Position numbers and translations under genes: made by a program
Notes under the pieces: generated by a model
What the model was told of the DNA's origin: nothing
Databases searched by the model: none
What the model saw: the letters and a program-made list of their open reading frames with translations, nothing else
In this document: positions 26,919 to 64,000 of the stretch, one piece after another
How the letters are laid out: each line of letters opens with the position of its first letter
How positions within the stretch are numbered: the stretch's first letter is position 1
DNA from: Eledone cirrhosa
Lineage: Eukaryota
Assembly (NCBI GenBank): GCA_964016885.1
Contig: OZ024740.1
Coordinates: forward strand, 87,792,001 to 87,856,000
Length of the DNA: 64,000 bases
Reading direction: 5' to 3'

Positions 26919-27005
<87 letters not shown>

Positions 27006-27107: not shown

Positions 27108-27215
27108 TATTTATAAAACTAACCTATATTATATTTTATCTGATGAAAGCGCACCATAGTTTGCTCTGGTGGCCCTTGAAATATGTATAATGAAATAAAT
27201 ATGGTTTTATAAATA
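27108..27215 (+). ncRNA. Minimal type I hammerhead ribozyme (family B, diverged) in pseudo-LTR 27010-27227
   Basis: AUUUUAU CUGAUGA AAG..CACCA uaguuugcuc UGGUG..CUU GAAA UAUGUA UA|AUGAAAU; stem II sequence differs from the 3635 copy but still pairs. Confidence 0.72.
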
Positions 27216-27226
27216 TAGTTTCCATT

Positions 27227-27493: not shown

Positions 27494-27524
27494 ATTATTA
27501 TTATTATTATTATTATTGTCATTA

Positions 27525-41506: not shown

Positions 41507-41571
41507 TTCTTCTTCTTCTTCTTCTTCTTCTTCTTCTTCTTCTTCTTCTTCTTCTTCTTCTTCTTCTTCTT

Positions 41572-41638
<67 letters not shown>
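41506..41638. repeat. (TTC)n followed by (TTA)n microsatellite
   Basis: Directly visible. Confidence 0.97.
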
Positions 41639-41639
<1 letters not shown>

Positions 41640-44600: not shown

Positions 44601-45562
44601 TTTGTTTGTGATGATAATGTCTTTGAGAATTATGTTAGTCTTGTGTATTATCTATTGGTTCTGTTTGGAGTTCTGGATCTTAGGGAGGGTGTCTCGTTCC
44701 CCCATGTCAGATTCTTTCATTTTCATCCATTCGATCATAATTTCATCCTTCAAGTTGGCAAGTTTATTCTCATTCATTTCTTTATCATTTACGATCTCAT
44801 TGTTTTCATTTTGAGTTTCATCTTGAGCATGCACTCCCTCCACTTTTTCGATCCTTTCTTTAATTTGTTCTGTTCTCAGTGATTCCGCCCCAACCCTGGG
44901 ATTCGAAGTGTTACAATTTACCTCGTTTTCACTGACACATGTTTCATTTTCCCTTCGCTGACTTTGTGCTAATAGCTTGATCTGATCAATTTCTATATCA
45001 GTTAGTAACTTTTTTTTTACAATATTTCTTCGTATATTGGCTAGTTTGTTACTGTCAATATAGCCTCTGTTTTCGGGATGTTTCTTTTTCCAGTTGATAT
45101 GTGTCTGTTCTGTATTCGATGTATTTGATGGGTAGTACATGGCAGTGTAGAAAGCCTCAAGGACTTCTTTATTATCTTCCCTTGACCATTTTTCTCTCTT
45201 TTTCTTTGGATTTCTTGGTGGTGAGCATGGAGGGCCAACAGTAGGAGTATTCCGGTTATGGGAGGTCTCCAGCTCCGAAGTGATGGGAAGGTTTGAACCA
45301 TTAGCTGATTTTTCGACCCCAGTCTGGTTCCTCTCTGAGGGACGCGGCCCTTTTTGACCTGGGTGACGGCCGATCCGGTATGAGATTTTATCATTAGACA
45401 TTTACTTTATTTTGTCGCGTTTTATCCTTATCCGCCAAGGGGTAATCATTTCGTGTTACCACTTCCAGGACGAGTGTCAACCAAGACTAGAGGGGTCGTC
45501 CTCCCCTAGAGACACGGCTATTCCCCGCCGGCCGCCATCCCGGTATTTCTTGATCACGGGGT
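41639..45562 (-). mobile_element. Dong/R4-like non-LTR retrotransposon (family B), near full length, frameshifted
   Basis: [86 protein letters not shown]; 3' end in (TAA)n; structured 5' UTR. Confidence 0.9.
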
Positions 45563-45786
45563 TTTCTTTTTTGTTGTTTTTTTAAATTGTTATTATCATG
45601 AGTGGTTCCTTAATGTGAGCATTGCGTGGCTTAAGAATGAAATTATTAATAATATAATATACTTTTTGCTGAAGTTGCCTGTTACTGTTGTTGGCTATGT
45701 CGGTGGTGGTGCTGGGGATTTTTCTATTGTTGGTGGGGAAGGGGGGAGCCAGCAGTGCCATAGTCGTTGACGTTTGGCCGGTGGCC

Positions 45787-46532
45787 GGGTCATTAAGTCA
45801 ATCTATTTATATCTTTTGCTAGCCTCTCCCTTGTCTAGTGATACCGCCACCTTCCCCTTTCTTAAGTTAACAGAAGGTAATGGGGGAATAGTGGTGGTAG
45901 CAATGAAGGAGTGGTGGCGGCGGTGATGGGATAGTGGTAGCAATGATGGATGGAGTGGTGGCGGCGGTAACTATAGTGATGGCGTTGTCGTTACTGAGTT
46001 TTGTTGAATAGACTAGTTTGTTTGATCTGTGTATTTATGCGTTTGTCTCGTATGTTTAATATATGTGTTGACATATTTACTTAATATTGGAATTAAACAT
46101 TTTGTGAAAACTTGAGACCATAATAATAGTAATTATTATTATTATGCTGGGATTGGTGGTGGTGGTGGTGAAATTGCCCTTATCTGGCTGTTGTATTTAG
46201 TCTACACAGAGGGATGATGGGATAGGTGGTGTATCTAGTTTGTGGTGTTGGTGAAATTGCTGTTATTTGGCTGTTGTATATAGTGTAGACAGAGGGGGTT
46301 TTCTTCCATTTATAACCATTTTCTTTTTTGAATATAAAATGTATAATACAAAATTAAATATTTGAGCGATATAACAATATATTATGGATCCGAATATTCT
46401 GAGACTTGAGTCTGGTGCTTTATGTATCATTTGTACTAAGAATTGTTATTTCACAATTGATTTAAATATGTTAAAAATCAAAATCTTACGGGAGCGATTT
46501 CATGACCTTCTATCCACCACGTGCGTCTTCCC
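45787..46532. repeat. Unidentified repeat ending in (TTA)n, copy 2
   Basis: Homologous to 41010-41506; immediately followed by (TTA)n and the Tx1 5' end. Confidence 0.75.
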
Positions 46533-46768
46533 TTATTATTATTATTATTATTATTGAATGCCATGGTTGACGGAGGCTCGGCTCTGTAAGGTATAGTAAT
46601 TTTTAACCCTTAAAACAATTGTAAATTGTTTAAAACTTGAACCAAATTGTTGATAAAGACACCCTCCTCCTCGTGAGAGGGGTCTTTCTGTCCGTTATTT
46701 GGCCCTTCGGGGTTAAATAATCAGTTATTGGGGTTTTGTACCCAAAATTTCATTTTAAACAAAAAAAC

Positions 46769-48868
46769 ATGGCTACCAAAAAAAAAAAATTTCATACGTC
46801 ACTCCCACTCATTCCGTCTTCTTCTTCCTCAATCATCACTACAGGAGAGAGAAGATTGTCTCTCTCCCTCCCTTCTTTAAATGTGTCTCTCTCCCTACCT
46901 TCTCTTTCGCAAGCGACGAAAGAAAAGAAAAGTCTCGTGCAAAGCGTGCAAGGTTTCTCCACGACGACGACGACAGCGACGAAACAGGTGTGCGGGAAAT
47001 ACGAAAACCCAGTTCATTCGTCTGACGTCAGGAATAATAGCAGTAGCAGCCGTAATAACAACAGCAACAGTGACAATGAAAACAACAGTAGCAGCCGCAA
47101 CAGCATCACCAGCAGCATAAACAACAACAGCATTAGCAGCAGCAACACCAACAACAACCACAGCAACAGCGGCGGAGGCAGTAGTCGTAGTACCTGCAGC
47201 AACAACAAAAGTACCAGCAGCTCTGACGACAACAACAACAGCAGAGAAAAACCAATCTCATTTGCAGGTATTGCGAAAAACCTGGAAACAATCCTCATAA
47301 CAAATGAGGAATTAGAGGAAGCGAAGAAGATGGTGACAAAGAACGGACACCGAGCAATCTGCAAGGCAGCGAAAAATTTTTTCGAAACCCAAGAGCACTG
47401 TACGGTCACGTACCGTACAGTAAGTACAAAATCCCGTAGGGTGGAAAGAGCCACAGAGGCCCAAATACAAAAAGCCTTGGGGTCTGTGTGGCAGAGGAAA
47501 ACGCACATCACCCGAGGCAAAAAATACGCCACCGTAGACGTACTTTTTGCCACACCCCAGGAGGCAAAGGCCCAATCAGTAGTGACCCTAAGGAGCGAGG
47601 AAATGGTGTTGGTGCCCTCCTACTGCGGGCAAAAAATTGTGAGGGTCAAACTGACCCACGTCCCCCCCGGAATGACCCCTTCTTGGCTGGCCGCGTCTGT
47701 CCTCGTCGGAATCGAGGACAAAACAACTGTACTGCAAGTACAGAAAAAAGTAAGAGAAGATTGGGTCGGCTCCTCCATTGAGATGCTAATCCAAACCAAC
47801 CAGGAGTGCATCGAAGCTATCCCGGATGTGATAGACTTCGATAACGGCACTCAACTGCCCATAAGTGTTGAGGGCAAACGCCCGAAATGCTTTCGCTGTG
47901 GATCGAAGACTCACCTCAGGGCCTTCTGCAACGAGAAGACCCTGAGAAAGGAGAAAACCCCCCTCCTCCCGAATCCGGTTCCACGGCTACCAGCAACAGG
48001 ACAAGCGGCAACCAGGAACGATAGGTCCGTGGCACCCATACCCACTCCACGGAAATCAAAGACAGCAGCAGCAGTGGAAATATTAACAACAACAACAGCA
48101 ATACCAAATGCAGCTGCAACAGAGACTCCAGTGCAAACATCACCAACAACAACAAGTGAAAGAGTGGAGCTGGTACCCCTCCCCGACCTTACAGAATCAG
48201 ACATGGAGTGTGAGGTGGGAGAGGGATGGCAAAAGGTCTCAAGAAGGCACAAACGCAGAAGCAGCGCATCGTCGCCTTTGAAAAGGGAGGAAAGAAATGA
48301 GAAAAGGGTAAAGTCTACTGCAAAGAGACCCACAGCAGCAACACCACCAACACCATCACCACCCACACCAGCACCACCATCACCACCGGCGACAACCCCA
48401 CCGCCAACAACACCTTCAACACCACCACCACAAGCACCAACATCGCAAACACAACAACAAAACACACACACCCAGCAACAACGACAAGAAAATAGCAGAA
48501 CCACACCCCACCCCCAGAAAAACAAATGCACGGCAATAAACACACACAACAAGAAACTAATGACTTACATAATTGAACACACAGACATTTCACAACAGGA
48601 CTACATAATACCAGCACCAATCAAAACGCCAACTAACATAAGACTGCTAAAAATAGCACAGAAACAATACACAAACATTAAAACGAAATTTCCCAACGCA
48701 GTTGGTGATTTCAGGGACCTAGGAGGAACCATTAATCGAAGAGTATATTCAGACATTCTCTTAGAAGAGCCGACGACCAGCCGAAGGGACGATTCAACGG
48801 TCCCTTCACCAGACGATCAAGTGAAAAGGGATGTAAAAACCATCCCTCCTCTACCAAAAATACGGTAA
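46769..48868 (+). CDS. LINE ORF1 gag-like protein with CCHC zinc knuckle
   Basis: CFRCGSKTHLRAFC (CX2CX4HX4C); Ser/Asn-rich and Pro/Thr-rich low-complexity segments; ATG at 46769. Confidence 0.88.
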   Translation: MATKKKKFHTSLPLIPSSSSSIITTGERRLSLSLPSLNVSLSLPSLSQATKEKKSLVQSVQGFSTTTTTATKQVCGKYENPVHSSDVRNNSSSSRNNNSNSDNENNSSSRNSITSSINNNSISSSNTNNNHSNSGGGSSRSTCSNNKSTSSSDDNNNSREKPISFAGIAKNLETILITNEELEEAKKMVTKNGHRAICKAAKNFFETQEHCTVTYRTVSTKSRRVERATEAQIQKALGSVWQRKTHITRGKKYATVDVLFATPQEAKAQSVVTLRSEEMVLVPSYCGQKIVRVKLTHVPPGMTPSWLAASVLVGIEDKTTVLQVQKKVREDWVGSSIEMLIQTNQECIEAIPDVIDFDNGTQLPISVEGKRPKCFRCGSKTHLRAFCNEKTLRKEKTPLLPNPVPRLPATGQAATRNDRSVAPIPTPRKSKTAAAVEILTTTTAIPNAAATETPVQTSPTTTSERVELVPLPDLTESDMECEVGEGWQKVSRRHKRRSSASSPLKREERNEKRVKSTAKRPTAATPPTPSPPTPAPPSPPATTPPPTTPSTPPPQAPTSQTQQQNTHTQQQRQENSRTTPHPQKNKCTAINTHNKKLMTYIIEHTDISQQDYIIPAPIKTPTNIRLLKIAQKQYTNIKTKFPNAVGDFRDLGGTINRRVYSDILLEEPTTSRRDDSTVPSPDDQVKRDVKTIPPLPKIR

Positions 48869-48903
48869 GTGGTCTTTCCCATCTTTTCCACTCTATTTTA
48901 AAC

Positions 48904-51900
48904 ATGACCTCACTCAGAATAGGCAGCATAAATGCGCGTGGCTTGGGGTCGTCATGGAAGCAGGGTCACCTGCTCAACGACCTCAGGTCACTAAACATAG
49001 ATGTAGTGGCCATCAGCGAGACCAGAATCTCCGAAGCACGGGCCTTCGCACCGATCTTCGGCGGCTACGATGTGTACGCATCTCCCAGCCGTCCTGGATC
49101 CGGTGGAGGAGTTGCTGTACTTTTTCGGAGAGGTTTGGATCTCGCCATACGGGCCATCTTCCTGGACCCAGAGGGTAAGCTGGTGGTGCTGGACGTGACC
49201 AGCGGAGACGGGCAAGCCTTCAGGCTAGTGGCCGTCTATGCCCCGACAGGAGCAGGGCGGCCTGATTTCTTCCGGCGTCTGGAGACCTTTCTTGGAACGT
49301 CCCGCTCTTTAGTGTTAGTGGGCGACTGGAACGGGATCTTAGATGCACGCTGGGACTGTGTGGGATTAGCGGATAGGGGTGGAGGGTGCAAGAGCCTCAC
49401 CAACCTGCTCAGGCGTTTTGAACTGTCTGACAGGTACCGATTGGATTTCCCGAATGTGCCAATGTGGACTTGGACAAACCGCATAGGGTCATCCAGATCA
49501 TATCTAGATAGAGTATTTTGTAGGGAAATAGATAGGTCTAGCATAGGCTGTCCACAATTCAAGATAGTCAGCTACACGGACCACAAATTCGTGATCTGTG
49601 TGCTTGACTTAGATAGGCTTCATAGACGAGGACCCGGCTACTGGAAGCTAAACGCGTCCTTACCAGCGCGCAAGGCCTACAGAGACCGGATTAGCGAACT
49701 AGTTAAGCGGGCGTTGACGGGGGCCATCGTCAACAACAAGTGGTGGTTTGCTCTGAAAAGAGCGATTAGAATAGAATCGATTAGGTTTAGTAAGGCTTTA
49801 GCAATAGAGAAAAATAGAGCAGAGGGAGAACTAGTTAGAAAATTAGACGAGGCGCTTAGCAAAGGCATTGCGACCGACGTGCTTGCGGCGAAATTGGCCC
49901 TTGACCAATTCTTCAATGCAAAGCACGAAGGCTGCGTTGTCAGAGCTAGAGTGCGTGCTCTCAGACACGAGGGGACGAAAGCCGTTCAATGGGCCCGAGT
50001 GGCGGAGGCGCGTCGTGGCAACAAAGCCACGATCCGGTCTTTGGTGGACCACGACGGGCGCATGCTACTCGATCCCGGGCAAATGTGTGAAACTTTTCAG
50101 CGACACTTCGCTCAGCTGTTCGGGGGCAGCGGGGGGCCGGGTAGAGGGATGGACTTTAGTGTCTACCTCGACGGGCTGCCGCGGCTCTCGGCCACTGAGG
50201 CGAGGTGTTGCGAAAAGCCGATAACAGCCGCTGAAGTACGGGAGGCAATGACTGGCTGCACAAGGGGTAAATCGCCTGGTTTGGATGGTCTGCCCTATGA
50301 ACTTTACGTACAGATGCCAGACTTGTTCGGAGGCCTCTTGGCGGACGTCTACTGCAACTGGCAACAGAACGGGAGAATTCCCAGTTCTGTGAGCCGAGGA
50401 GCGGTGGCACTGCTGAGAAAGGATCCGAACAAGGGGGATAACATAGACAATTTCCGGCCCATAACTCTGCTAAACACAGAGTTTAAGATTTTGGCCAAGG
50501 TGCTAGCAAAGAGGTTGGCGCTTGTCGTTGGTGGTCTGGTGGGAGAGGCGCAGACATGCGCCATTCCCGACAGATCCATCCACGACAACCTCCACCTCAT
50601 GCGATACATCGTAGAGAGGGTAGCTAGGGAACCTGGCACGGGTGGGTCCTTGATCAATTTAGATCAGTCGAAAGCTTTCGATAGGGTCGACCATCGTTAC
50701 CTAGCGGCAGTCCTGAGGGCGGCTGGCTTTGGGCCCGTCTTCAGAGGCTGGATCGCTGCCATGCACAGCGACATCTGCTCTGTGGTGAGAGTGAACGGTC
50801 ACCTGTCGGAACCGTTCAACATCATGCGCTCGGTCCGCCAAGGATGTCCCCTCTCGTCCCTCTTGTACGTATTGACTCTCGAGCCATTACTGCACAAACT
50901 GGAGACGTTGAGGGGAGTCCCGCGCGAACTAGGATGCGGAAGATCCGTGTCAGCATATGCGGACGATGTCACCGTAGTGGTGTCGAACGCCAAACACATC
51001 GAGGCGATCGGCACTACACTAAGAGAATACGAAGCGGTGACAGGAGCAATGATCAACCAGGAAAAGTCAGTGGGCCTGCAGCTCGGCACCTGGAGAGGCA
51101 GGTCCATGCCGTCCAACAGCGTCGTCGGGCGCTGGACGGACGGACCGGTTAAATTGCTAGGGGTCTGGTTCGGTCCGGACCTCCAGACGGACAAAAACTG
51201 GGACGAGGTGACGAGCAGGGTGGCTTCTCTCACCCAGAAATGGGCGGAGAGGAAGCTATCCCTGAAAGGTCGAGCGGAGGTGGCTAACGCGTACATCGCG
51301 TCTGTCATCTGCTACCGCCTAACCGTCGTACCTTGTCCTAAGCCTCGCCTGACTGCGCTGGAGCGTTTGCTCTTTCGCTTTTTGTGGAAGGGACGTGCTC
51401 CGATGGTCAGGCGGTCCATCTGTTGTCAACACCCGCTACGTGGAGGGCTGGGCATGCCGTGGCTGATGATGCGCAGGCACGCGCTCAGGCTACGACATCT
51501 CCACCTCTTCCTCGACGGTGATCAGGTGTGGTCGCCGTTTGCTAGACGCGTTTTTCCCCAGCTCGTTTCCTTGACGGAGCTGCAGTCCTGGGTCAAGCGA
51601 AGACCGAGAGGGAGCGCCTGGAGACTGGAATGTCTTCAGGCGCTCACAGCCCTCGACCAATCGGGCAATGTGATCGGTGGAAACTCCACCTCGGCGTTCT
51701 ATAGAGGATTAGTGGAGGGGAAGAGCGACGACGTACTTGGGGAAACTCTAGGCGTCGACGAAAATCAACTAGCCAATCTCTTCGGAAGAACTTTCGGGCC
51801 AGGGCCTATGGACAACTTCCAGAAATCTCTGGCCTGGCAGTGCTACCGAGGAGCCTTGCCAGTTCGGGATAAACTCTACAGGCATGGAGGTGCCGTCAGC

Positions 51901-52323
51901 CGGGCATGTCCGAGATGCGCGCAGGGCGACGAAACCGTCCTGCACGCACTCGTCCAGTGTCCGAAAATTGCTGACTTGTGGGTTTATGTCGAACACCTGC
52001 TGTCGCGTTTAGGACGGATCCAGCTATCATCTGAGTCCATCGTGAGGATTGCCCCGCCCTCCTCCTTTAGCCGGGAAGGGCAGGCAGTTTTTATCTGTCT
52101 GGTGGCCATGGCGAAAGAGATAGTATGGTGGACACGTTTGAAAGGGCTGAAGACGAGCACTTACCTCTTCGGTGATGCTCTGATTGACTTTTTCAAATTT
52201 CATTTGAAAAGGAAAATCAGAGTAGAGAGGGAAGTGCTCTCTTCCCAGCATTTTGTTGAAAGATGGGTGAGAGAAGCAAGAATGGCCCGAGTGAATGGGC
52301 CGACTCTGAGTATATATCTGTAA
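48904..52323 (+). CDS. LINE ORF2: APE endonuclease + RT + C-terminal Cys/His motif (1139 aa)
   Basis: SINARGL, ISET, VYAP, GDWN, SYLDR, TDH; GYWKLN, KSPGLDGLPYE, FRPITLLN, DQSKAFDRV, QGCPLS, YADD; CPRC..HALVQC. Confidence 0.95.
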   Translation: MTSLRIGSINARGLGSSWKQGHLLNDLRSLNIDVVAISETRISEARAFAPIFGGYDVYASPSRPGSGGGVAVLFRRGLDLAIRAIFLDPEGKLVVLDVTSGDGQAFRLVAVYAPTGAGRPDFFRRLETFLGTSRSLVLVGDWNGILDARWDCVGLADRGGGCKSLTNLLRRFELSDRYRLDFPNVPMWTWTNRIGSSRSYLDRVFCREIDRSSIGCPQFKIVSYTDHKFVICVLDLDRLHRRGPGYWKLNASLPARKAYRDRISELVKRALTGAIVNNKWWFALKRAIRIESIRFSKALAIEKNRAEGELVRKLDEALSKGIATDVLAAKLALDQFFNAKHEGCVVRARVRALRHEGTKAVQWARVAEARRGNKATIRSLVDHDGRMLLDPGQMCETFQRHFAQLFGGSGGPGRGMDFSVYLDGLPRLSATEARCCEKPITAAEVREAMTGCTRGKSPGLDGLPYELYVQMPDLFGGLLADVYCNWQQNGRIPSSVSRGAVALLRKDPNKGDNIDNFRPITLLNTEFKILAKVLAKRLALVVGGLVGEAQTCAIPDRSIHDNLHLMRYIVERVAREPGTGGSLINLDQSKAFDRVDHRYLAAVLRAAGFGPVFRGWIAAMHSDICSVVRVNGHLSEPFNIMRSVRQGCPLSSLLYVLTLEPLLHKLETLRGVPRELGCGRSVSAYADDVTVVVSNAKHIEAIGTTLREYEAVTGAMINQEKSVGLQLGTWRGRSMPSNSVVGRWTDGPVKLLGVWFGPDLQTDKNWDEVTSRVASLTQKWAERKLSLKGRAEVANAYIASVICYRLTVVPCPKPRLTALERLLFRFLWKGRAPMVRRSICCQHPLRGGLGMPWLMMRRHALRLRHLHLFLDGDQVWSPFARRVFPQLVSLTELQSWVKRRPRGSAWRLECLQALTALDQSGNVIGGNSTSAFYRGLVEGKSDDVLGETLGVDENQLANLFGRTFGPGPMDNFQKSLAWQCYRGALPVRDKLYRHGGAVSRACPRCAQGDETVLHALVQCPKIADLWVYVEHLLSRLGRIQLSSESIVRIAPPSSFSREGQAVFICLVAMAKEIVWWTRLKGLKTSTYLFGDALIDFFKFHLKRKIRVEREVLSSQHFVERWVREARMARVNGPTLSIYL

Positions 52324-52583
52324 ACTAAAGGTGGAAAACTGGGAGAGGGCACTTGCCTTGGTGGTCAGGGTCATTGTGGCTTTTTACTGGGCTTTCTCCA
52401 CAAATGTCCCTCCGAAGTCTCCCCCCTATTGGGGAATTTTTCATTGTTATTTTCATTGTTATTTTTGTTACATCCTCTGTTTTTGTTTTTTTACACGCAG
52501 AAATGCCCATTTGTACCGTCCTGCATTGTCCTGCACTGTCCTTAATGTCTACTTTATGTAAACCCTTGTGGTTAATAAAGAAA

Positions 52584-52660
<77 letters not shown>

Positions 52661-52662
<2 letters not shown>

Positions 52663-52983
52663 AGCTGCATTTATCTTGTTTTATGTTCATACGAGTTATC
52701 ACCAAGTCACAACCAGTGACCTCAAGAGACAACAAGGTCCGCCATGTTCAAGGAAGAACATACATACTCACACATGCATCTTTAGGTGCTTAGACTTGTG
52801 ATGTACTTATATTGACAGAATCTTCCTTAGTATATGGGCAGTTACCATTAGTACTATCTTTTGTATTTCTCTTATACGCGGGTTTCCTGGGATTTGCGAT
52901 AAGTATTCATTAGACCCCTTAGGTATCATTCCTAGAGCGCCTAAAACCACTGGTATTGTTTTAGTTCTCAATTTCCACATTTT
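52661..52983 (-). mobile_element. 5'-truncated 3' fragment of Dong/R4-like family B
   Basis: Matches about 41639-41948; (TTA)n on both sides. Confidence 0.92.
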
Positions 52984-53002
52984 TATTATTATTATTATTA
53001 TT

Positions 53003-53680
53003 GAATGCTATGGTTGACGGAGGCTCGGCTCTGTAAGGTATTGTAAATTTTCACCGCTATAACAATTGTAAATTGTTTAAAACTTTAACCAACTTGTAGA
53101 CAAAAACACCCTCCTCCTCGTGAGAGGGGTCTTTCTGCCCGTTATTTGGCCCTTCGGGGTTAAATAAACGCTTATTGGGGTTTTGTGCCCAATATTTATT
53201 TTAAACAAAAAAAAAAAACATGGCTACGAAAAAGAATTTTCATAGGTCACTCCCACTCATTCCGTCTTCTTCTTCCTCAATCGTCACTACAGCAGAGAGA
53301 AGATTGTCTCTCTCCCTCCCTTCTCTAAATGTGTCTCTCTCCCTCCCTTCTCTTTCGCAAGCGACGCCAGAAAAGAAAAATCACGTGCAAAGCGTGTAAG
53401 ATTTCTCCACGACGACGACGACAACGACGAAAAAGGTGTGCGGGAAATACGAAAACCCATTTCATTCGTCTGACGTCAGGAATAATAGCAGTAGCAGCCG
53501 TAATAACAGCAGCAGCAGCAACCTGTTTCAAGGAAAACAACAGTAGCAGCCGCAACAGAATCAGCAGCAGCATAAACAACAACAGCATTAGCAGCAACAG
53601 CAACAACAACAGCAGCAGCAGCGGCGGCGGCAGTAGTCGTAGTACCTGCAGCAACAACAAAAGTAACAGCAGCTCTGACG

Positions 53681-53711
<31 letters not shown>

Positions 53712-55967
53712 AGACTCCACTGCAAACATCACCAACAACAAGTGAAAGAGTGGAGCTGGTACCCCTCCCCGACCTCACAGAATCAGACATGGAGTGTGAG
53801 GTGGGAGAGAGATGGCAAAAGGTCGTAAGAAGGCACAAACGCAGAAGCAGCGCATCGTCGCCTTCGAAAAGGGAGGAAAGAAATGAAAAAAGGGTAAAGG
53901 CTACTGCAAAGAGACTCACAGCAGCAACACCACCAACACCATCACCACCCACACTAGCACCACCATCACCACCGGCGACAACCCCACCGCCAACAACAAC
54001 AACACCTTCAACACCACCACCACAAGCACCAACATTGCAAACACAACAACAAAACACACACACAAAGCAACAACGACAAGAAAATAGCAGAACCACACCC
54101 CACCCCCAGAAAAACAAATGCACGGCAATAAATACACACAACAAGAAACTAATGACTTACATAATTGAACACACAGACATTTCACAACACGACTACATAA
54201 TACCAGCACCAATCAAAACGCCAACGAACATAAGACTGCTAAAAATAGCACAGAAACAATACACAAACATTAAAACGAAATTCCCCAACGCAGTTGGTGA
54301 TTTCAGAGACCTAGGAGGGGCTCTCAACCGGAGAGTATATTCGGACATACTCATAGAAGAGCCGACGACCAGCCGAAATGACGATTCCACGGTCATTTCA
54401 CCAGACGATAAAATGAAAAGGGTGGGAGAAACCATCCTTCCTCTACGAAAAGTACGGTAAGTGGTCTTTCCCATCTTTTACACTCTATTTTAAACATGAC
54501 CTCACTCAGAATAGGCAGCATAAATGCGTGTGGCTTGGGGTTGTCATGGAAGCAGGGTCACCTGCTCAACGACCTCAGGTCACTAAACATAGATGTAGTG
54601 GCCACCAGCGAGACCAGAATCTCCGAAGCACGGGCCTTCGCACCGATCTTCGGCGGCTACGATGTGTACGCATCTCCCAGCCGTCCTGGATCGGGGGGAG
54701 GAGTTGCTGTGCCTTTTCGGAGAGGTTTGGATCTCGCCATACGAGCCATCTTCCTGGACCCAGAGAGTAAGTTGGTGGTGCTGGACGTGACCAGCAGAGA
54801 CGGGCAAGCTTTCAGGCTAGTGGCCGTCTATGCACCGACAGGAGCAAGGCGGCCTGATTTCTTCCGGCGTCTGGAGACCTTTCTTGGACATCTCCACCTC
54901 TTCCTCGACGGTGATCAGGTGTGGTCGCCGTTTGCTAGACACGTATTTCCCCAGCTCATTTTCTTGACGGAGCTACAGTCCTGGGTCAAGCGAAGACCGA
55001 GAGGGAGGGCCTGGAGACTGGAATGTCTTCAGGCGCTAACAGCCCTCGACCAATCGGGCAATGTGATCGGTGGAAACTCCACCTTGGCGTTCTATAGAGG
55101 ATTAGTGGAGGGGAAGAGCGACGACGTACTTGGGGAAACTCTAGGCGTTGACGAAAATCAACTAGCCAATCTCTTCGGAAGAACTTTCGGGCCGGGACCT
55201 ATGGACAACTTCCAGAAATCTGTGGCCTGGCAGTGCTACCGAGGAGCCTTGCCAGTTCGGGATAAACTCTACACGCATGGAGGTGCCGTCAGCCGGGCAT
55301 GATCGAGATGCGCGCAGGGCGACGAAACCGTCCTGCACGCACTCGTCCAGTGTCCGAAAATTTCTGACTTGTGGGTTTATGTCGAACACCTGCTGTCGCG
55401 TGTAGGACGGATCCGGCTATCATCTGAGTCCATCGTGAGGATTGCCCCGCCCTCTTCCTTTAGCCGGGAAGGGCAGGCAGTTTTTATCTGTCTGGTGGCC
55501 ATGGCGAAAGAGATAGTATGGTGGACACGTTTGAAAGGGCTGAAGACGAGCACTTACCTCTTCGGTGATGCCCTGATTAACTTTTTCAAATTTCATTTGA
55601 AAAGGAAAATCAGGGTAGAGAGGGAAGTGCTCTCTTCGCAGCATTTTGTTGAAAGATGGGTGAGAGAAGCAAGAATGGCCCGAGTGAATGGGCCTACTCT
55701 GAGTACGTATCTGTAAATTAAAGGTGGAAAACTGGGAGAGGGCACTTTCCTTGGTGGTCAGGGTCACTGTGGCCTTTTACTGGGCTTTCTCCACAAATGT
55801 CCCTCCGAAGTCTCCCCCCTATTGGGGAATTTTTCATTGTTATTTTTTTGGTACATTCTCTGTTTTTGTTTTTTACACGCAGAAATGCCCATTTGTACCG
55901 TCCTGTATTGTCCCGCACTGTCCTTAATGTCTACTTTATGTAAACCCTTGTGGTTAATAAAGAAATC
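53003..55967 (+). mobile_element. Internally deleted non-autonomous Tx1-like copy
   Basis: Both termini intact with (ATT)n flanks; deletion in ORF1 near 53710 and an in-frame 2199-bp ORF2 deletion at 54888 removing the RT; premature TGA at 55300. Confidence 0.92.
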
Positions 55968-56199
55968 ATTATTATTATTATTATTGAATGCCATGGTTGA
56001 CGGAGGCTCGGCTCTGTAAGGTATAGTAATTTTTAACCGTTAAAACAATTGTAAATTGTTTAAAACTTGAACCAAATTGTTGATAAAGACACCCTCCTCC
56101 TCGTGAGAGGGGTCTTTCTGTCCGTTATTTGGCCCTTCGGGGTTAAATAATCAGTTATTGGGGTTTTGTACCCAAAATTTCATTTTAAGCAAAAAAAAC

Positions 56200-58299
56200 A
56201 TGGCTACCAAAAAAAAAAAATTTCATACGTCACTCCCACTCATTCCGTCTTCTTCTTCCTCAATCATCACTACAGGAGAGAGAAGATTGTCTCTCTCCCT
56301 CCCTTCTTTAAATGTGTCTCTCTCCCTACCTTCTCTTTCGCAAGCGACGAAAGAAAAGAAAAGTCTCGTGCAAAGCGTGCAAGGTTTCTCCACGACGACG
56401 ACGACAGCGACGAAACAGGTGTGCGGGAAATACGAAAACCCAGTTCATTCGTCTGACGTCAGGAATAATAGCAGTAGCAGCCGTAATAACAACAGCAACA
56501 GTGACAATGAAAACAACAGTAGCAGCCGCAACAGCATCACCAGCAGCATAAACAACAACAGCATTAGCAGCAGCAACACCAACAACAACCACAGCAACAG
56601 CGGCGGAGGCAGTAGTCGTAGTACCTGCAGCAACAACAAAAGTACCAGCAGCTCTGACGACAACAACAACAGCAGAGAAAAACCAATCTCATTTGCAGGT
56701 ATTGCGAAAAACCTGGAAACAATCCTCATAACAAATGAGGAATTAGAGGAAGCGAAGAAGATGGTGACAAAGAACGGACACCGAGCAATCTGCAAGGCAG
56801 CGAAAAATTTTTTCGAAACCCAAGAGCACTGTACGGTCACGTACCGTACAGTAAGTACAAAATCCCGTAGGGTGGAAAGAGCCACAGAGGCCCAAATACA
56901 AAAAGCCTTGGGGTCTGTGTGGCAGAGGAAAACGCACATCACCCGAGGCAAAAAATACGCCACCGTAGACGTACTTTTTGCCACACCCCAGGAGGCAAAG
57001 GCCCAATCAGTAGTGACCCTAAGGAGCGAGGAAATGGTGTTGGTGCCCTCCTACTGCGGGCAAAAAATTGTGAGGGTCAAACTGACCCACGTCCCCCCCG
57101 GAATGACCCCTTCTTGGCTGGCCGCGTCTGTCCTCGTCGGAATCGAGGACAAAACAACTGTACTGCAAGTACAGAAAAAAGTAAGAGAAGATTGGGTCGG
57201 CTCCTCCATTGAGATGCTAATCCAAACCAACCAGGAGTGCATCGAAGCTATCCCGGATGTGATAGACTTCGATAACGGCACTCAACTGCCCATAAGTGTT
57301 GAGGGCAAACGCCCGAAATGCTTTCGCTGTGGATCGAAGACTCACCTCAGGGCCTTCTGCAACGAGAAGACCCTGAGAAAGGAGAAAACCCCCCTCCTCC
57401 CGAATCCGGTTCCACGGCTACCAGCAACAGGACAAGCGGCAACCAGGAACGATAGGTCCGTGGCACCCATACCCACTCCACGGAAATCAAAGACAGCAGC
57501 AGCAGTGGAAATATTAACAACAACAACAGCAATACCAAATGCAGCTGCAACAGAGACTCCAGTGCAAACATCACCAACAACAACAAGTGAAAGAGTGGAG
57601 CTGGTACCCCTCCCCGACCTTACAGAATCAGACATGGAGTGTGAGGTGGGAGAGGGATGGCAAAAGGTCTCAAGAAGGCACAAACGCAGAAGCAGCGCAT
57701 CGTCGCCTTTGAAAAGGGAGGAAAGAAATGAGAAAAGGGTAAAGTCTACTGCAAAGAGACCCACAGCAGCAACACCACCAACACCATCACCACCCACACC
57801 AGCACCACCATCACCACCGGCGACAACCCCACCGCCAACAACACCTTCAACACCACCACCACAAGCACCAACATCGCAAACACAACAACAAAACACACAC
57901 ACCCAGCAACAACGACAAGAAAATAGCAGAACCACACCCCACCCCCAGAAAAACAAATGCACGGCAATAAACACACACAACAAGAAACTAATGACTTACA
58001 TAATTGAACACACAGACATTTCACAACAGGACTACATAATACCAGCACCAATCAAAACGCCAACTAACATAAGACTGCTAAAAATAGCACAGAAACAATA
58101 CACAAACATTAAAACGAAATTCCCCAACGCAGTTGGTGATTTCAGGGACCTAGGAGGAACCATTAATCGAAGAGTATATTCAGACATTCTCTTAGAAGAG
58201 CCGACGACCAGCCGAAGGGACGATTCAACGGTCCCTTCACCAGACGATCAAGTGAAAAGGGATGTAAAAACCATCCCTCCTCTACCAAAAGTACGGTAA
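56200..58299 (+). CDS. LINE ORF1 gag-like zinc-knuckle protein
   Basis: Near-identical to 46769-48868. Confidence 0.88.
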   Translation: MATKKKKFHTSLPLIPSSSSSIITTGERRLSLSLPSLNVSLSLPSLSQATKEKKSLVQSVQGFSTTTTTATKQVCGKYENPVHSSDVRNNSSSSRNNNSNSDNENNSSSRNSITSSINNNSISSSNTNNNHSNSGGGSSRSTCSNNKSTSSSDDNNNSREKPISFAGIAKNLETILITNEELEEAKKMVTKNGHRAICKAAKNFFETQEHCTVTYRTVSTKSRRVERATEAQIQKALGSVWQRKTHITRGKKYATVDVLFATPQEAKAQSVVTLRSEEMVLVPSYCGQKIVRVKLTHVPPGMTPSWLAASVLVGIEDKTTVLQVQKKVREDWVGSSIEMLIQTNQECIEAIPDVIDFDNGTQLPISVEGKRPKCFRCGSKTHLRAFCNEKTLRKEKTPLLPNPVPRLPATGQAATRNDRSVAPIPTPRKSKTAAAVEILTTTTAIPNAAATETPVQTSPTTTSERVELVPLPDLTESDMECEVGEGWQKVSRRHKRRSSASSPLKREERNEKRVKSTAKRPTAATPPTPSPPTPAPPSPPATTPPPTTPSTPPPQAPTSQTQQQNTHTQQQRQENSRTTPHPQKNKCTAINTHNKKLMTYIIEHTDISQQDYIIPAPIKTPTNIRLLKIAQKQYTNIKTKFPNAVGDFRDLGGTINRRVYSDILLEEPTTSRRDDSTVPSPDDQVKRDVKTIPPLPKVR

Positions 58300-58334
58300 G
58301 TGGTCTTTCCCATCTTTTCCACTCTATTTTAAAC

Positions 58335-61300
58335 ATGACCTCACTCAGAATAGGCAGCATAAATGCGCGTGGCTTGGGGTCGTCATGGAAGCAGGGTCAC
58401 CTGCTCAACGACCTCAGGTCACTAAACATAGATGTAGTGGCCATCAGCGAGACCAGAATCTCCGAAGCACGGGCCTTCGCACCGATCTTCGGCGGCTACG
58501 ATGTGTACGCATCTCCCAGCCGTCCTGGATCGGGTGGAGGAGTTGCTGTGCTTTTTCGGAGAGGTTTGGATCTCGCCATACGGGCCATCTTCCTGGACCC
58601 AGAGGGTAAGCTGGTGGTGCTGGACGTGACCAGCGGAGACGGGCAAGCTTTCAGGCTAGTGGCCGTCTATGCCCCGACAGGAGCAGGGCGGCCTGATTTC
58701 TTCCGGCGTCTGGAGACCTTTCTTGGAACGTCCCGCTCTTTAGTGTTAGTGGGCGACTGGAACGGGATCTTAGATGCACGCTGGGACTGTGTGGGATTAG
58801 CGGATAGGGGTGGAGGGTGCAAGAGCCTCACCAACCTGCTCAGGCGTTTTGAACTGTCTGACAGGTACCGATTGGATTTCCCGAATGTGCCAATGTGGAC
58901 TTGGACAAACCGCATAGGGTCATCCAGATCATATCTAGATAGAGTATTTTGTAGAGAAATAGATAGGTCTAGCATAGGCTGTCCACAATTCAAGATAGTC
59001 AGCTACACGGACCACAAATTCGTGACCTGTGTGCTTGACTTAGATAGGCTTCATAGACGAGGACCCGGCTACTGGAAGCTAAACGCGTCCTTACCAGCGC
59101 GCAAGGCCTACAGAGACCGGATTAGCGAACTAGTTAAGCGGGCGTTGACGGGGGCCATCGTCAACAACAAGTGGTGGTTTGCTCTGAAAAGAGCGATTAG
59201 AATAGAATCGATTAGGTTTAGTAAGGCTTTAGCAATAGAGAAAAATAGAGCAGAGGGAGAACTAGTTAGAAAATTAGACGAGGCGCTTAGCAAAGGCATT
59301 GCGACCGACGTGCTTGCGGCGAAATTGGCCCTTGACCAATTCTTCAATGCAAAGCACGAAGGCTGCGTTGTCAGAGCTAGGGTGCGTGCTCTCAGACACG
59401 AGGGGACGAAAGCCGTTCAATGGGCCCGAGTGGCGGAGGCGCGTCGTGGCAACAAAGCCACGATCCGGTCTTTGGTGGACCACGACGGGCGCATGCTACT
59501 CGATCCCGGGCAAATGTGTGAAGCTTTTCAGCGACACTTCGCTCAGCTGTTCGGGGGCAGCGGGGGGCCGGGTAGAGGGATGGACTTTAGTGTCTACCTC
59601 GACGGACTGCCGCGGCTCTCGGCCACTGAGGCGAGGTGTTGCGAAAAGCCGATAACAGCCGCTGAAGTACGGGAGGCAATGACTGGCTGCACAAGGGGTA
59701 AATCGCCTGGTTTGGATGGTCTGCCCTATGAACTTTACGTACAGATGCCAGACTTGTTCGGAGGCCTCTTGGCGGACGTCTACTGCAACTGGCAACAGAA
59801 CGGGAGAATTCCCAGTTCTGTGAGCCGAGGAGCGGTGGCACTGCTGAGAAAGGATCCGAACAAGGGGGATAACATAGACAATTTCCGGCCCATAACTCTG
59901 CTAAACACAGAGTTTAAGATTTTGGCCAAGGTGCTAGCAAAGAGGTTGGCGCTTGTCGTTGGTGGTCTGGTGGGAGAGGCGCAGACATGCGCCATTCCCG
60001 ACAGATCCATCCACGACAACCTCCACCTCATGCGATACATCGTAGAGAGGGTAGCTAGGGAACCTGGCACGGGTGGGTCCTTGATCAATTTAGATCAGTC
60101 GAAAGCTTTCGATAGGGTCGACCATCGTTACCTAGCGGCAGTCCTGAGGGCGGCTGGCTTTGGGCCCGTCTTCAGAGGCTGGATCGCTGCCATGCACAGC
60201 GACATCTGCTCTGTGGTGAGAGTGAACGGTCACCTGTCGGAACCGTTCAACATCATGCGCTCGGTCCGCCAAGGATGTCCCCTCTCGTCCCTCTTGTACG
60301 TATTGACTCTCGAGCCATTACTGCACAAACTGGAGACGTTGAGGGGAGTCCCGCGCGAACTAGGATGCGGAAGATCCGTGTCAGCATATGCGGACGATGT
60401 CACTGTAGTGGTGTCGAACGCCAAACACATCGAGGCGATCGGCACTACACTAAGAGAATACGAAGCGGTGACAGGAGCAATGATCAACCAGGAAAAGTCA
60501 GTGGGCCTGCAGCTCGGCACCTGGAGAGGCAGGTCCATGCCGTCCAACAGCGTCGTCGGGCGCTGGACGGACGGACCGGTTAAATTGCTAGGGGTCTGGT
60601 TCGGTCCGGACCTCCAGACGGACAAAAACTGGGACGAGGTGACGAGCAGGGTGGCTTCTCTCACCCAGAAATGGGCGGAGAGGAAGCTATCCCTGAAAGG
60701 TCGAGCGGAGGTGGCTAACGCGTACATCGCGTCTGTCATCTGCTACCGCCTAACCGTCGTACCTTGTCCTAAGCCTCGCCTGACTGCGCTGGAGCGTTTG
60801 CTCTTTCGCTTTTTGTGGAAGGGACGTGCTCCGATGGTCAGGCGGTCCATCTGTTGTCAACACCCGCTACGTGGAGGGCTGGGCATGCCGTGGCTGATGA
60901 TGCGCAGGCACGCGCTCAGGCTACGACATCTCCACCTCTTCCTCGACGGTGATCAGGTGTGGTCGCCGTTTGCTAGACGCGTTTTTCCCCAGCTCGTTTC
61001 CTTGACGGAGCTGCAGTCCTGGGTCAAGCGAAGACCGAGAGGGAGCGCCTGGAGACTGGAATGTCTTCAGGCGCTCACAGCCCTCGACCAATCGGGCAAT
61101 GTGATCGGTGGAAACTCCACCTCGGCGTTCTATAGAGGATTAGTGGAGGGGAAGAGCGACGACGTACTTGGGGAAACTCTAGGCGTCGACGAAAATCAAC
61201 TAGCCAATCTCTTCGGAAGAACTTTCGGGCCAGGGCCTATGGACAACTTCCAGAAATCTCTGGCCTGGCAGTGCTACCGAGGAGCCTTGCCAGTTCGGGA

Positions 61301-61754
61301 TAAACTCTACAGGCATGGAGGTGCCGTCAGCCGGGCATGTCCGAGATGCGCGCAGGGCGACGAAACCGTCCTGCACGCACTCGTCCAGTGTCCGAAAATT
61401 GCTGACTTGTGGGTTTATGTCGAACACCTGCTGTCGCGTTTAGGACGGATCCAGCTATCATCTGAGTCTATCGTGAGGATTGCCCCGCCCTCCTCCTTTA
61501 GCCGGGAAGGGCAGGCAGTTTTTATCTGTCTGGTGGCCATGGCGAAAGAGATAGTATGGTGGACACGTTTGAAAGGGCTGAAGACGAGCACTTACCTCTT
61601 CGGTGATGCTCTGATTGACTTTTTCAAATTTCATTTGAAAAGGAAAATCAGAGTAGAGAAGGAAGTGCTCTCTTCCCAGCATTTTGTTGAAAGATGGGTG
61701 AGAGAAGCAAGAATGGCCCGAGTGAATGGGCCGACTCTGAGTATATATCTGTAA
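58335..61754 (+). CDS. LINE ORF2 APE-RT polyprotein (1139 aa)
   Basis: Near-identical to 48904-52323; all motifs intact. Confidence 0.95.
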   Translation: MTSLRIGSINARGLGSSWKQGHLLNDLRSLNIDVVAISETRISEARAFAPIFGGYDVYASPSRPGSGGGVAVLFRRGLDLAIRAIFLDPEGKLVVLDVTSGDGQAFRLVAVYAPTGAGRPDFFRRLETFLGTSRSLVLVGDWNGILDARWDCVGLADRGGGCKSLTNLLRRFELSDRYRLDFPNVPMWTWTNRIGSSRSYLDRVFCREIDRSSIGCPQFKIVSYTDHKFVTCVLDLDRLHRRGPGYWKLNASLPARKAYRDRISELVKRALTGAIVNNKWWFALKRAIRIESIRFSKALAIEKNRAEGELVRKLDEALSKGIATDVLAAKLALDQFFNAKHEGCVVRARVRALRHEGTKAVQWARVAEARRGNKATIRSLVDHDGRMLLDPGQMCEAFQRHFAQLFGGSGGPGRGMDFSVYLDGLPRLSATEARCCEKPITAAEVREAMTGCTRGKSPGLDGLPYELYVQMPDLFGGLLADVYCNWQQNGRIPSSVSRGAVALLRKDPNKGDNIDNFRPITLLNTEFKILAKVLAKRLALVVGGLVGEAQTCAIPDRSIHDNLHLMRYIVERVAREPGTGGSLINLDQSKAFDRVDHRYLAAVLRAAGFGPVFRGWIAAMHSDICSVVRVNGHLSEPFNIMRSVRQGCPLSSLLYVLTLEPLLHKLETLRGVPRELGCGRSVSAYADDVTVVVSNAKHIEAIGTTLREYEAVTGAMINQEKSVGLQLGTWRGRSMPSNSVVGRWTDGPVKLLGVWFGPDLQTDKNWDEVTSRVASLTQKWAERKLSLKGRAEVANAYIASVICYRLTVVPCPKPRLTALERLLFRFLWKGRAPMVRRSICCQHPLRGGLGMPWLMMRRHALRLRHLHLFLDGDQVWSPFARRVFPQLVSLTELQSWVKRRPRGSAWRLECLQALTALDQSGNVIGGNSTSAFYRGLVEGKSDDVLGETLGVDENQLANLFGRTFGPGPMDNFQKSLAWQCYRGALPVRDKLYRHGGAVSRACPRCAQGDETVLHALVQCPKIADLWVYVEHLLSRLGRIQLSSESIVRIAPPSSFSREGQAVFICLVAMAKEIVWWTRLKGLKTSTYLFGDALIDFFKFHLKRKIRVEKEVLSSQHFVERWVREARMARVNGPTLSIYL

Positions 61755-62054
61755 ACTAAAGGTGGAAAACTGGGAGAGGGCACTTGCCTTGGTGGTCAGG
61801 GTCATTGTGGCTTTTTACTGGGCTTTCTCCACAAATGTCCCTCCGAAGTCTCCCCCCTATTGGGGAATTTTTCATTGTTATTTTCATTGTTATTTTTGTT
61901 ACATCCTCTGTTTATGTTTTTTTACACGCAGAAATGCCCATTTGTACCGTCCTGCATTGTCCTGCACTGTCCTTAATGTCTACTTTATGTAAACCCTTGT
62001 GGTTAATAAAGAAATCATTATTATTATTATTATTATTATTATTGTTATTGTTAT

Positions 62055-64000
62055 TCCTTGAATCTCAGTCATTGATGTTGGTTAACTGGAAAGTCCGTTG
62101 GATTGAATATCAAGCCACTACCTGCAGCCTCAGATATTCAGGACGTATCGGAGGGTTCTTGCCGTTCCAAGCAAGCATGCCTTTTGAAGCGTTCCAAAAA
62201 GCGTGAAGGGGCCGATTTTCTTTAACCATCCCTGGAAACCTTTGGAGATAGTCCCCAGTGCGCCTATGACAATCGGGATCACTTTGACTTCATGGCAGTT
62301 CCAAATCCTTTTCACCTCCCACTTTAGGTCCTGGTATCGGTTAATTTTCTCCCTCTCCTTCTCTTGCACTCTCGTGTCGAACGGGCAGGCCACATCCACA
62401 ATCAGGCACGATCTTTTTTCTTTGTCCACAACCACCAGGTCAGGTCTATTGTGTTCCAGTTTTTTGTCCGTCTGTATCCTAAAATCCCACAGCACCTTCA
62501 CCTGACTGTTCTCCATCACCGCCTCTGGCCTATGCTCATACCATTTCTCAGAATGTGGTAGATTGTTTACTTTGCACAGGTGCCAGTGGATCACCCTGCC
62601 CATCACATCGTGTCTCCAGCCCTTATAGTGGGTCTGGGCTAGGTGTTTACACTCGGACACAATGTGAGCCACAGTCTCCTCTCTCTCTCCACAGATCCTG
62701 CACAGTGGGCTAGCCTCCTCCTTGTAGATATGGTGCTTCAACCACTTCGTTTTGAGGGCCTGCTCCTGCGCAGCCATTAGCATTCCTTCTGTAGCCTTTT
62801 TGAGGTCTCCTCTTCTCAACCAGTTCCATGTCTGTGGATCTCTAAATTCAGTTTTCTCAAAGAAGGTACTATGAAGGGATTTTCCCTTAAGGCTGCTCTT
62901 CCTCCTTGATGTTATTTCCTCCTTGGGTATCCCCTGGCCTACTCTCCCCTCCTTCAGTACAGCTCTGAGCATTGGCTCCTTACTATAGGTCACGTATTTG
63001 TATAGGTTGTTTTTCTCCATCTGAACACAGTCCTCTATGCTGATAAGACCTCTTCCACCCTCAGATCTCCTTAGGTAGAGTCTATCGACATCACTCCTCT
63101 TGTGGAACATGTTGTAGATAGTCAATAGCTTCCTAGTCTTCCTATCCATTTCTTTTTGTTCAGCAACATTCCATCTCAGAATTCCCGCACTGTACCTAAT
63201 AATAGACACAGCTCGGGAATTTACTGCGCTTATGGCATTTCTGCTGTTCAGATGTGACTTCAATACGCTCCTTACTCTCCGAATGTATTCAGTTCTTAAC
63301 AATTCCTTCATTTTTTTGTTCTTTATGCCATCAGCCTCCAGAACGCCCAAATACTTGTATCCTTCCTCAGAGTCAATTTCCTTTATCATCTCACCTGTTG
63401 GTATCTGGATCCCGTTACTTCTGCTCAACCTACCCCTCCTCATCACAATGACTCCACATTTACCAATACCAAACTGCATACATATATCACTGCTGAAAAT
63501 ACGGACAGTGTCAACAAGCACATCCAACTCCTTCTCACTTTTCCCGAAGAGCTTAAGATCGTCCATGAAGAGGAGGTGATTGATGGTAAGCTCTCCCCTT
63601 CCCAACTTGTATCCTGCTCTCACTTTTCGCAGCATAATGGTCAAGGGCATCAGGGCAAGGACAAACAACAGAGGGGACAGGCTATCTCCCTGGAAGATAC
63701 CTCTCTTGATCTTCACGCTTCCCAAGGATACTCCAGTTGATGTCAACTCTGTCTCCCAGGACCCCATACTCCTGCCCAGCAACTCTCTGATGTTATCTGC
63801 CACCCTGAAGATCTCCAGGCTTTTGGTGATCCAGGAATGAGGCACCATGTCAAATGCCTTTCTGTAGTCTATCCATCCCATGGCAAGATCAGTGTGTCTC
63901 CTCCTGCAATTCCCCATTACCATCTTATCAATAAGCAACTGGTCCTTTGTACCACGTGACTTCTTTCGGCATCCTTTCTGTTCGTCCGGCAACAAGTTGT
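62055..64000 (-). mobile_element. Dong/R4-like family A copy with open RT-RLE frame (62130 to beyond the window edge)
   Basis: Uninterrupted 621-aa frame with [44 protein letters not shown]; homologous to 27525-29470. Confidence 0.93.

Follow-up and report, generated by a model that had tools for sequence, protein, structure and literature searches.

A young, intact Tx1-like LINE associated with (ATT)n microsatellites in Eledone cirrhosa

A 64,000-nucleotide stretch of the Eledone cirrhosa genome (GenBank assembly GCA_964016885.1, contig OZ024740.1, positions 87,792,001 to 87,856,000 of the forward strand; hereafter the window, with positions counted from its first letter) contains four copies, designated A, B, C and F, of a long interspersed nuclear element (LINE) that is probably an autonomous, recently active Tx1-like retrotransposon lacking long terminal repeats (a non-LTR element), preferring (ATT)n/(AAT)n tracts and inserting in a fixed orientation by target-primed reverse transcription. 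The element would likely represent a new ATT target variant, in a separate lineage, of a known class of site-preferring elements; that the family has already been catalogued is possible but doubtful. The four copies are all the matches to copy A obtained in a self-search of the whole window, and their coordinates are given with those of their neighbours in Table 1.

The 3' untranslated region (UTR) of copy A closes with AATAAA and six further bases. Copy B has two internal deletions (approximately A positions 689-1530 and 2742-4938) and a stop in the remnant of its second open reading frame (ORF2), and is 92% identical to A over the 5' 440 bp and 97% over the 3' 1.08 kb. Copy C lies head-to-tail behind copy B, with (ATT)6 between them. 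The 5' junctions at 46556, 53003 and 55986 consist of (ATT)n directly followed by GAATGC, and the perfect ATT runs before A, B, C and F measure 23, 20, 18 and 3 bp, respectively. The 3' junctions at 27493, 52585, 55967 and 62016 consist of AATAAAGAAATC directly followed by (ATT)n, where the perfect repeat following F, A, B and C spans 24, 76, 18 and 27 bp, respectively. All junctions read on the plus strand in one phase, and none of the 3' ends carries poly(A), in full agreement with an earlier note on this DNA, which had reported these junction coordinates, the common phase and orientation, and the missing poly(A) at four 3' ends. Within the window, ATT is therefore present at three of the four 5' junctions and at all four 3' junctions. 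The same note had placed "all three" 5' ends after ATT, which holds for A, B and C and does not extend to the fourth copy, F, whose 5' end has no ATT run.

Table 1. Features of the ATT-associated LINE and its Dong/R4-like neighbours in the window
Feature	Position	Strand	Details
Copy A, full-length intact LINE, 6030 bp	46556..52585	+	213-bp 5' UTR, ORF1, ORF2, 262-bp 3' UTR
ORF1 of A, 699 aa	46769..48868	+	Start rich in Ser/Asn; two RRM-like domains at ~aa 190-365; CCHC knuckle (aa 374); tail rich in Pro/Thr
ORF2 of A, 1139 aa	48904..52323	+	N-terminal APE endonuclease, reverse transcriptase, C-terminal zinc motif
Copy B, both ends kept, internally deleted	53003..55967	+	Self-search match in three pieces
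Copy C, full-length intact, 6031 bp	55986..62016	+	ORF1 56200-58299, ORF2 58335-61754
Copy F, 267-bp 3' remnant	27227..27493	+	93% to A over aligned bases
ATT tract, 23 bp	46533..46555	+	D1 5' end to A 5' end
ATT tract, 76 bp	52586..52661	+	A 3' end to D2 3' end
ATT tract, 20 bp	52983..53002	+	Truncated D2 5' end to B 5' end
(ATT)6	55968..55985	+	Between B and C; target-site duplication candidate (18 bp)
ATT tract, 27 bp perfect, then GTT-interrupted	62017..62055	+	C 3' end to Dong-like E1 3' end
(ATT)8	27494..27517	+	F to Dong-like E0 3' end
D1, full-length, frame-broken reverse transcriptase element (family D)	41639..46532	-	PD..D nuclease motif; TAA repeats at both ends
D2, 5'-truncated family-D copy	52662..52982	-	93% to D1; TAA at both ends
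D0, 5' end of a further family-D copy	41407..41638	-	82% to D1; (TTC)31(TTA)13 next on +
E1, 3' part of a second Dong/R4-like family (family E)	62056..64000	-	Reverse transcriptase, CCHC, PD..D; runs out of window
E0, family-E copy	27518..30832	-	94% nt to E1; 3' end meets F's ATT tract

The copies occupy ATT tracts at a rate far above chance, a statement supported by the rarity of such positions. Sites following an in-phase (ATT)4 account for 53 of the 128,000 strand-positions (0.04%), and the probability that the 5' ends of A and B (the two ends that no neighbour's tail explains) both fall at such sites by chance is about 2e-7, a rough and post hoc figure, as the insertions themselves enlarge the tracts. 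None of the four copies lies inside any of the 79 AT-dinucleotide tracts of the window (2618 bp, approximately ten times the ATT coverage) or inside its 25 AC, 8 AAC, 6 AG and 1 AAG tracts. The non-repeat neighbours upstream of the copies are mutually unrelated (D1 at its 5' end, D2 in mid-ORF and B at its 3' end), those downstream are the 3' ends of families D and E, which have no nucleotide match to each other, and ATT is the only sequence common to the junctions; judged from these otherwise unrelated flanks, the insertion signal is likely to be ATT itself. The apparent specificity for ATT proposed in the earlier note is upheld, as a preference within the window, by flanks at three of four 5' ends and four of four 3' ends, and is qualified by copy F and by the sharing of the tracts with Dong/R4-like elements. 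For comparison, a target-specific family has been defined as one in which a single sequence type occurs in >20% of the flanks of its copies (PMC4494074; papers are cited here by PMC number, and statements drawn from them refer to the portions of text available).

Copies A and C, which lie 3.4 kb apart, are the two 6.03-kb copies that the earlier note had described as having intact ORF1 and ORF2 and few differences, and their 99.7% identity (17 differences, comprising 16 substitutions and one indel) bears this out. Within ORF2, nine changes are synonymous and three are non-synonymous, compared with a synonymous share of 29% expected under neutrality with transitions weighted fourfold (9/12 observed, p ~0.0014). 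The homology between A and C stops at the ATT tracts on both sides, which argues for separate insertions over a duplicated segment, and the synonymous bias together with the differing outer neighbours points to separate insertions from functional sources, as far as can be read from the sequence. At 9 of the 17 sites separating A from C, the C-type letter is the majority in the independent sequencing runs X2 and X5, among the 40 rows listed of 161. In run X2, 48,601 contigs align to the element across 30 of 30 bins, including 11,908 at at least 99%, with a summed depth over ORF2 several-fold above that of the 5' part, and contig pieces from run X5 tile 46565-52572 at about 99%. These matches show a multi-variant family outside this assembly and are no measure of copy number; the alignments passed over both junction repeats and thus carry no flank information, and no element ends were found among the 10 of 1445 loose-end rows listed in the run alignments. 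The raw-read runs X22 and X23 contributed no more than 3 and 7 reads, which fall on a stretch of low complexity, and the 20 runs from 16 studies that share words with copy A include 16 known by shared words alone, which are no evidence of range.

The encoded proteins agree with the picture of a young, intact LINE of Tx1-like build with an apurinic/apyrimidinic endonuclease (APE) and a reverse transcriptase (RT), a description in the earlier note that is borne out by the intact ORFs, the catalytic residues and the 17 differences between A and C. ORF2 matches PF03372 (Exo_endo_phos), PF00078 (RVT_1) and PF13966 (zf-RVT) in Pfam and keeps its catalytic residues (E39, Y112, D141, N143, D202, D226 and H227), with YADD at 685 and the zinc motif at 1002. 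The endonuclease model has a predicted local distance difference test (pLDDT) score of 94 and its best fold match is the LINE-1 endonuclease, with a template-modelling (TM) score of 0.82; its hairpin loop has 9 residues between the anchor positions, as in human L1 and two fewer than in Xenopus Tx1. At residue 38 of the endonuclease (encoded at 48904-49635), next to the catalytic Glu39, a Ser occupies a position that is a nearly invariant Gln in a 62-row endonuclease alignment. The ORF1 protein has no Pfam match; a word search returned no relatives and a HMMER scan returned 299. Its core is modelled by AlphaFold with a pLDDT of 91, the top Foldseek matches are proteins with tandem RNA-recognition motifs (RRMs; E 1.6e-4, TM 0.2-0.4), and its neighbours in the Atlas are ZCCHC3-RBD / zf-CCHC at 0.90-0.93. 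A separate ORF1 with RRM domains and a CCHC knuckle is typical of Tx1-type elements, and this element has one. None of six window proteins occurs as an exact sequence in the protein collection. At the RNA level, the 3' UTR folds no better than its shuffles (z -0.01), no Rfam family reaches its gathering score between 40.5 and 64 kb, and no ribozyme family matches near the element's 5' end at E values of up to 5. A hepatitis delta virus-like ribozyme was considered and rejected, the descriptor matching only at shuffle level.

By the build of ORF2 (N-terminal APE endonuclease, RT and C-terminal zinc motif), the element has the make-up of a Tx1-type LINE, and its membership of the Tx1 clade appears likely. 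Two proteins lie nearest to ORF2, the first at 79% and the second, from Argonauta hians and suggestive of an octopod host, at 69%; a group at 38-48% follows. Against Xenopus Tx1, ORF2 scores 327 bits (29% identity), versus 183 bits against human L1. In an RT tree of 50 rows chosen for spread (an earlier tree held 91 of 125 rows, with 4 short matches dropped and near-identical ones thinned), the element and its 79% and 69% relatives form one clade (100/100) that is sister to the 38-48% group (100/99), making 15 rows together. The element falls outside a 13-row clade of Xenopus Tx1 and most named fish relatives, in a tree whose backbone is without resolution and which holds no named L1 row. The Tx1-like assignment of the earlier note is therefore sustained by the domain build and ORF1, while the tree places the element in a clade of its own, apart from Xenopus Tx1.

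A scan of species-representative genomes for relatives gave 40 loci; a single bacterial bin (G001) supplied 38, and on its contigs there are 86 matches (16 contigs; 56 matches near full length without a stop). The AC/AT-rich flanks suggest that these array contigs are animal DNA inside a bacterial bin. Contigs C3-C15 and C17-C19 of this bin carry arrays of intact Tx1-like LINEs of several families, with units of ~6.4-6.9 kb. These relatives (41-43%) stand in head-to-tail arrays, with the 3' end soon after AATAAA and no poly(A), and their inner junctions hold a short family-typical spacer that recurs at the 3' ends of the arrays. One array, on contig C17, was captured with its two ends and lies between the copies of an 18-bp direct repeat (16/18 identical), and two other array 5' ends (L106, L103) have no clear copy of the repeat or junction motif. 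A target-site duplication of near 18 bp would fit the ATT runs, uniform at 18-23 bp, that precede A, B and C, and the (ATT)6 between B and C is a candidate for such a duplication, its 18-bp length taken by analogy from the repeat around the sister-clade array. In a metagenome scan, distant relatives (20-48% in the best segment) turned up at 55 loci, with no ATT run in their repeat listing; among viral contigs, exact terminus searches returned 1 chance match and 0, and a profile scan none. Two further loci were seen in these scans. A flank in the G001 bin (L102:6589-11450) holds a broken Dong-like copy and, close by, two (ATT)6 tracts untouched by the Tx1-like relatives there, and L092:4933-8403, in another bacterial bin and apparently host DNA, holds a full-length Tx1-like ORF2 (28%) amid long GA/CA/TA repeats.

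The minus strand of the window from 41.4 to 64 kb forms a head-to-tail array of E1, D2, D1 and D0, belonging to two families that share 30-50% of their amino acids (E1 versus family D). Three junction tracts separate its members, of which A fills one, B and C together fill another, and the third, the D0-D1 junction, is empty of any Tx1-like insert; from this arrangement, the insertions of A, B and C are taken to be separate events at one locus. A (TTC)31 tract (41507-41601) looks like an outgrowth of D0 at its 5' end. On the sense strand, TAA repeats occur at both ends of D1 and D2 and at the 3' ends of E0 and E1, RT followed by CCHC and PD..D motifs, the order expected of Dong/R4 elements, is found in E1, with PD..D in D1, and the best solved-structure relatives of these neighbours are R2 proteins. 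The Dong/R4-like label rests on the motifs and the TAA ends, as the best 120 of 1278 homologues gave no informative names. Targeting of TAA is a described habit of Dong elements (PMC3812793, PMC3774820), and Dong-R4 covers 92.7 Mb in Octopus vulgaris (PMC13282606 supplement), so that many TAA tracts would touch a Dong element anyway if the present host is similar.

Elsewhere in the window, three ORFs (15211-16644 and 21091-21624 on the plus strand, 38707-39972 on the minus strand) encode what we take to be Penelope-type RT/GIY-YIG proteins; those at 15211-16644 and 38707-39972 are 35% identical, and the two that were scanned have no Pfam match. A 562-aa transposase-like ORF just upstream of Dong-like E0 (31699-33387, minus strand), presumably hAT/Buster-like, has no Pfam match, and a 316-bp unit is present in three tandem copies with 98% matches at 13515-14461.

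If the element does prefer ATT, its endonuclease would make the first nick on the (AAT)n (bottom) strand at a T/A step (AAT/AAT), which would match the phase of the 3' junctions. The RNA, presumably not polyadenylated, would probably run on into the tract, and its (AUU)n end would pair with the freed primer; a second nick on the (ATT)n (top) strand, again at T/A (ATT/ATT) and ~15-21 bp away, would then leave behind ATT stretches of uniform length (18-23 bp) at the 5' ends. In the same tracts, the Dong-like elements would nick the opposite strand by means of an unrelated PD..D nuclease, two nuclease types having converged on one microsatellite and piling up there in opposite orientations. Since (TA)n is avoided although it offers T/A steps, such steps cannot be the whole explanation, and the specificity would have to come from the endonuclease surface, from (AUU)n RNA-primer pairing, or from both, and the hairpin loop of L1 length leaves the pairing route available. 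R1 and SART elements are known to have read-through tails that pair with the target. It is unlikely that the lineage selects its target by its own read-through 3' flank and not by a dedicated nuclease, with locus-bound head-to-tail arrays in the sister clade and, here, ATT targeting genome-wide in competition, from the opposite strand, with an unrelated element that carries a restriction-like nuclease; if so, the target would be reprogrammable via the RNA tail, and the pair would form a natural test of microsatellite specificity in APE elements. Endonucleases of the L1 type cut at TTTT/AA, and that of Tx1L has sequence specificity (PMC1950540).

Several observations weigh against ATT targeting and its proposed mechanism. 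The sample is small, with four copies and the three ATT-flanked 5' ends all in one compound locus. The 5' junction of copy F, with its 3 bp of ATT, abuts a truncated hairpin repeat whose missing arm is nowhere in the window, so that this junction may be secondary; it is still counted as a miss. By its divergence from A, copy F appears to be older than the other copies. The hairpin repeat itself is present as a near-perfect (97%) form between TA tracts at 3283-3856, and the relative abutting the 5' end of F (27003-27226) is diverged and truncated. The window holds no ATT tract free of Dong-like elements and therefore no control, and among its copies none is 5'-truncated with an ATT junction that is native. 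Because its hairpin loop is of L1 length, the modelled endonuclease loop appears to bear no structural mark of strict specificity, and as a perfect repeat cannot fix nick positions or duplication length, the nick positions given above are inferred. Finally, ATT occurred in 0 of 41 junction contexts of the sister clade (motif search, 46 loci), nor was any found in the locus listing for the sister families that the motif search missed; with no ATT at any of these contexts, ATT use is not a trait of the whole clade.

Among other explanations, there is a real, if minority, chance that the target is chosen mainly by RNA-primer pairing, in which a loose T/A-nicking endonuclease acts with a read-through transcript guided by the flank of its source; a founder that landed in ATT would have locked its family to ATT, and sister families would re-insert behind themselves and so form arrays. 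This would be a variant of the inferred pairing step, not an alternative to ATT targeting. It is consistent with the lack of poly(A) here and in the sister clade, with the sister families' own short junction motif common to inner junctions and array 3' ends, with the two mismatches between the 18-bp repeat copies around the C17 array, with the endonuclease loop of L1 length, with the same element-spacer-element build of B-C, and with plentiful (TA)n tracts that offer T/A steps yet are unused. The sister arrays, however, could have arisen by unequal crossing-over and were recovered with bias in a bacterial bin, and the 5' ends of the L106 and L103 arrays lack a clear copy of the junction motif. 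That the element instead targets Dong/R4-like elements or arrays, by tethering or chromatin state, with ATT merely present at Dong ends, is distinctly unlikely. All five ATT junctions outside B-C (A 5', B 5', A 3', C 3' and F 3') do face a Dong-like end, as do the tracts in general (of the eight with at least 4 units, six abut the end of a minus-strand Dong/R4-like element, one lies inside one and one is the B-C junction in the same array), and transposon-targeting Tx1 families exist (PMC4494074). Nevertheless, the neighbours come from two families with no similarity at the nucleotide level, one of the contacts being a truncation point within an ORF, copy C inserted behind B and not directly at a Dong 5' end, and the abundance of Dong-R4 in O. 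vulgaris (PMC13282606) implies that TAA tracts often touch Dong in a similar host.

The remaining alternatives concern the origin of the tracts and of the copies. ATT could be the element's own 3' tail, combined with unspecific or weakly AT-preferring insertion, the 5' tracts being accidental or Dong-like elements having entered tails later. Copy F with ATT at its 3' side only, the 5' tract of C, which could be the tail of B, and the (ATT)n tails known in RandI/Dualen elements (PMC3747384) would be in keeping with this idea, which is nonetheless very improbable, as A and B both begin immediately behind in-phase ATT runs that belong to the tail of no copy, at a class of sites as rare as described above, and as D1, with TAA on both sides, is frame-broken and older-looking than the intact A. 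The earlier note had named a segmental duplication or mis-assembly as a finding that would overturn its reading, in which case A and C would be one insertion doubled. Their high identity and proximity would suit such an event, but the end of homology at the ATT tracts with different flanks beyond, the synonymous bias and the presence of C-type letters in other runs make it extremely unlikely. The best account of the junctions is a Tx1-like element that probably targets ATT, on evidence from this one window.

The origin of microsatellite targeting in APE-type retrotransposons has been described as poorly understood (PMC3812793). The present family offers two intact copies, a close sister clade that inserts differently and, on the same tract, an unrelated competitor of Dong-like type, and these three features together make the shares of endonuclease and RNA-primer pairing directly testable. 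The finding would add ATT to the targets of APE elements, would show two nuclease types converging on one repeat, and would give a mechanism for transposable element hotspots in octopod genomes, which are rich in young Dong-R4 and L1-Tx1 insertions (PMC13282606); the known retrotransposon classes are unchanged by it. No ATT-targeting Tx1 or APE family was found in the literature searched, with Repbase and the per-family target list of PMC4494074 lying outside that search, and the available portions of PMC3747384 and PMC8869645 list no ATT-targeting Tx1. Cephalopod papers describe L1-Tx1 and Dong-R4 as abundant and young and, in the available text, give no targets (PMC13282606, PMC8967140, PMC9115989). 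For O. vulgaris, 80 L1-Tx1 consensus sequences are reported, including 13 recently active families that account for 421 insertions, with no targets given in the same portions (PMC13282606); the element resembles these families in class and youth, and may well be among them.

Compared with known systems, the element is comparable to the Kibi (TC)n and Koshi (TTC)n families of teleosts and the crocodilian (TTCC)n/(TTTC)n Tx1 families (PMC4494074, PMC3812793), all being APE-encoding Tx1-type LINEs in a microsatellite. Unlike in Kibi and Koshi, its probable target is ATT, and the (TTC)31 and 6 AG tracts of the window are unused (0/4 copies), so that it is set apart by the described targets. Other repeats are used by Waldo and Mino (ACAY and AC) and by Dong (TAA; PMC3812793), by Togen (TG; PMC4640811) and by Tx1-1_ACar (telomeric repeats; PMC10088271). 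Xenopus Tx1L targets Tx1D, and the crocodilian Tx1-Mar targets Mariner-N4 (PMC4494074). Insertion next to other elements is shared with both, as is 29% ORF2 identity with Tx1L, whereas the junctions here lie in a repeat and not in transposon sequence, and the element has a shorter hairpin loop and a shorter ORF2 than Tx1L (1139 versus 1308 aa). With its sister clade (38-48% identity), it has in common the ORF1 knuckle, the 3' end soon after AATAAA without poly(A), tandem copies and, as a candidate here, an 18-bp flanking repeat, and it differs in its ATT junctions from the long head-to-tail arrays without ATT found there. Dong elements have one ORF. The present element uses the same microsatellite as Dong, but has two ORFs, an N-terminal APE nuclease and the opposite orientation, Dong reading TAA on the sense strand. 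Dong, of the R4 clade, is TAA-specific in Bombyx, Anopheles and Biomphalaria (PMC3812793, PMC3774820), and its clade carries a restriction-like nuclease (PMC4640811).

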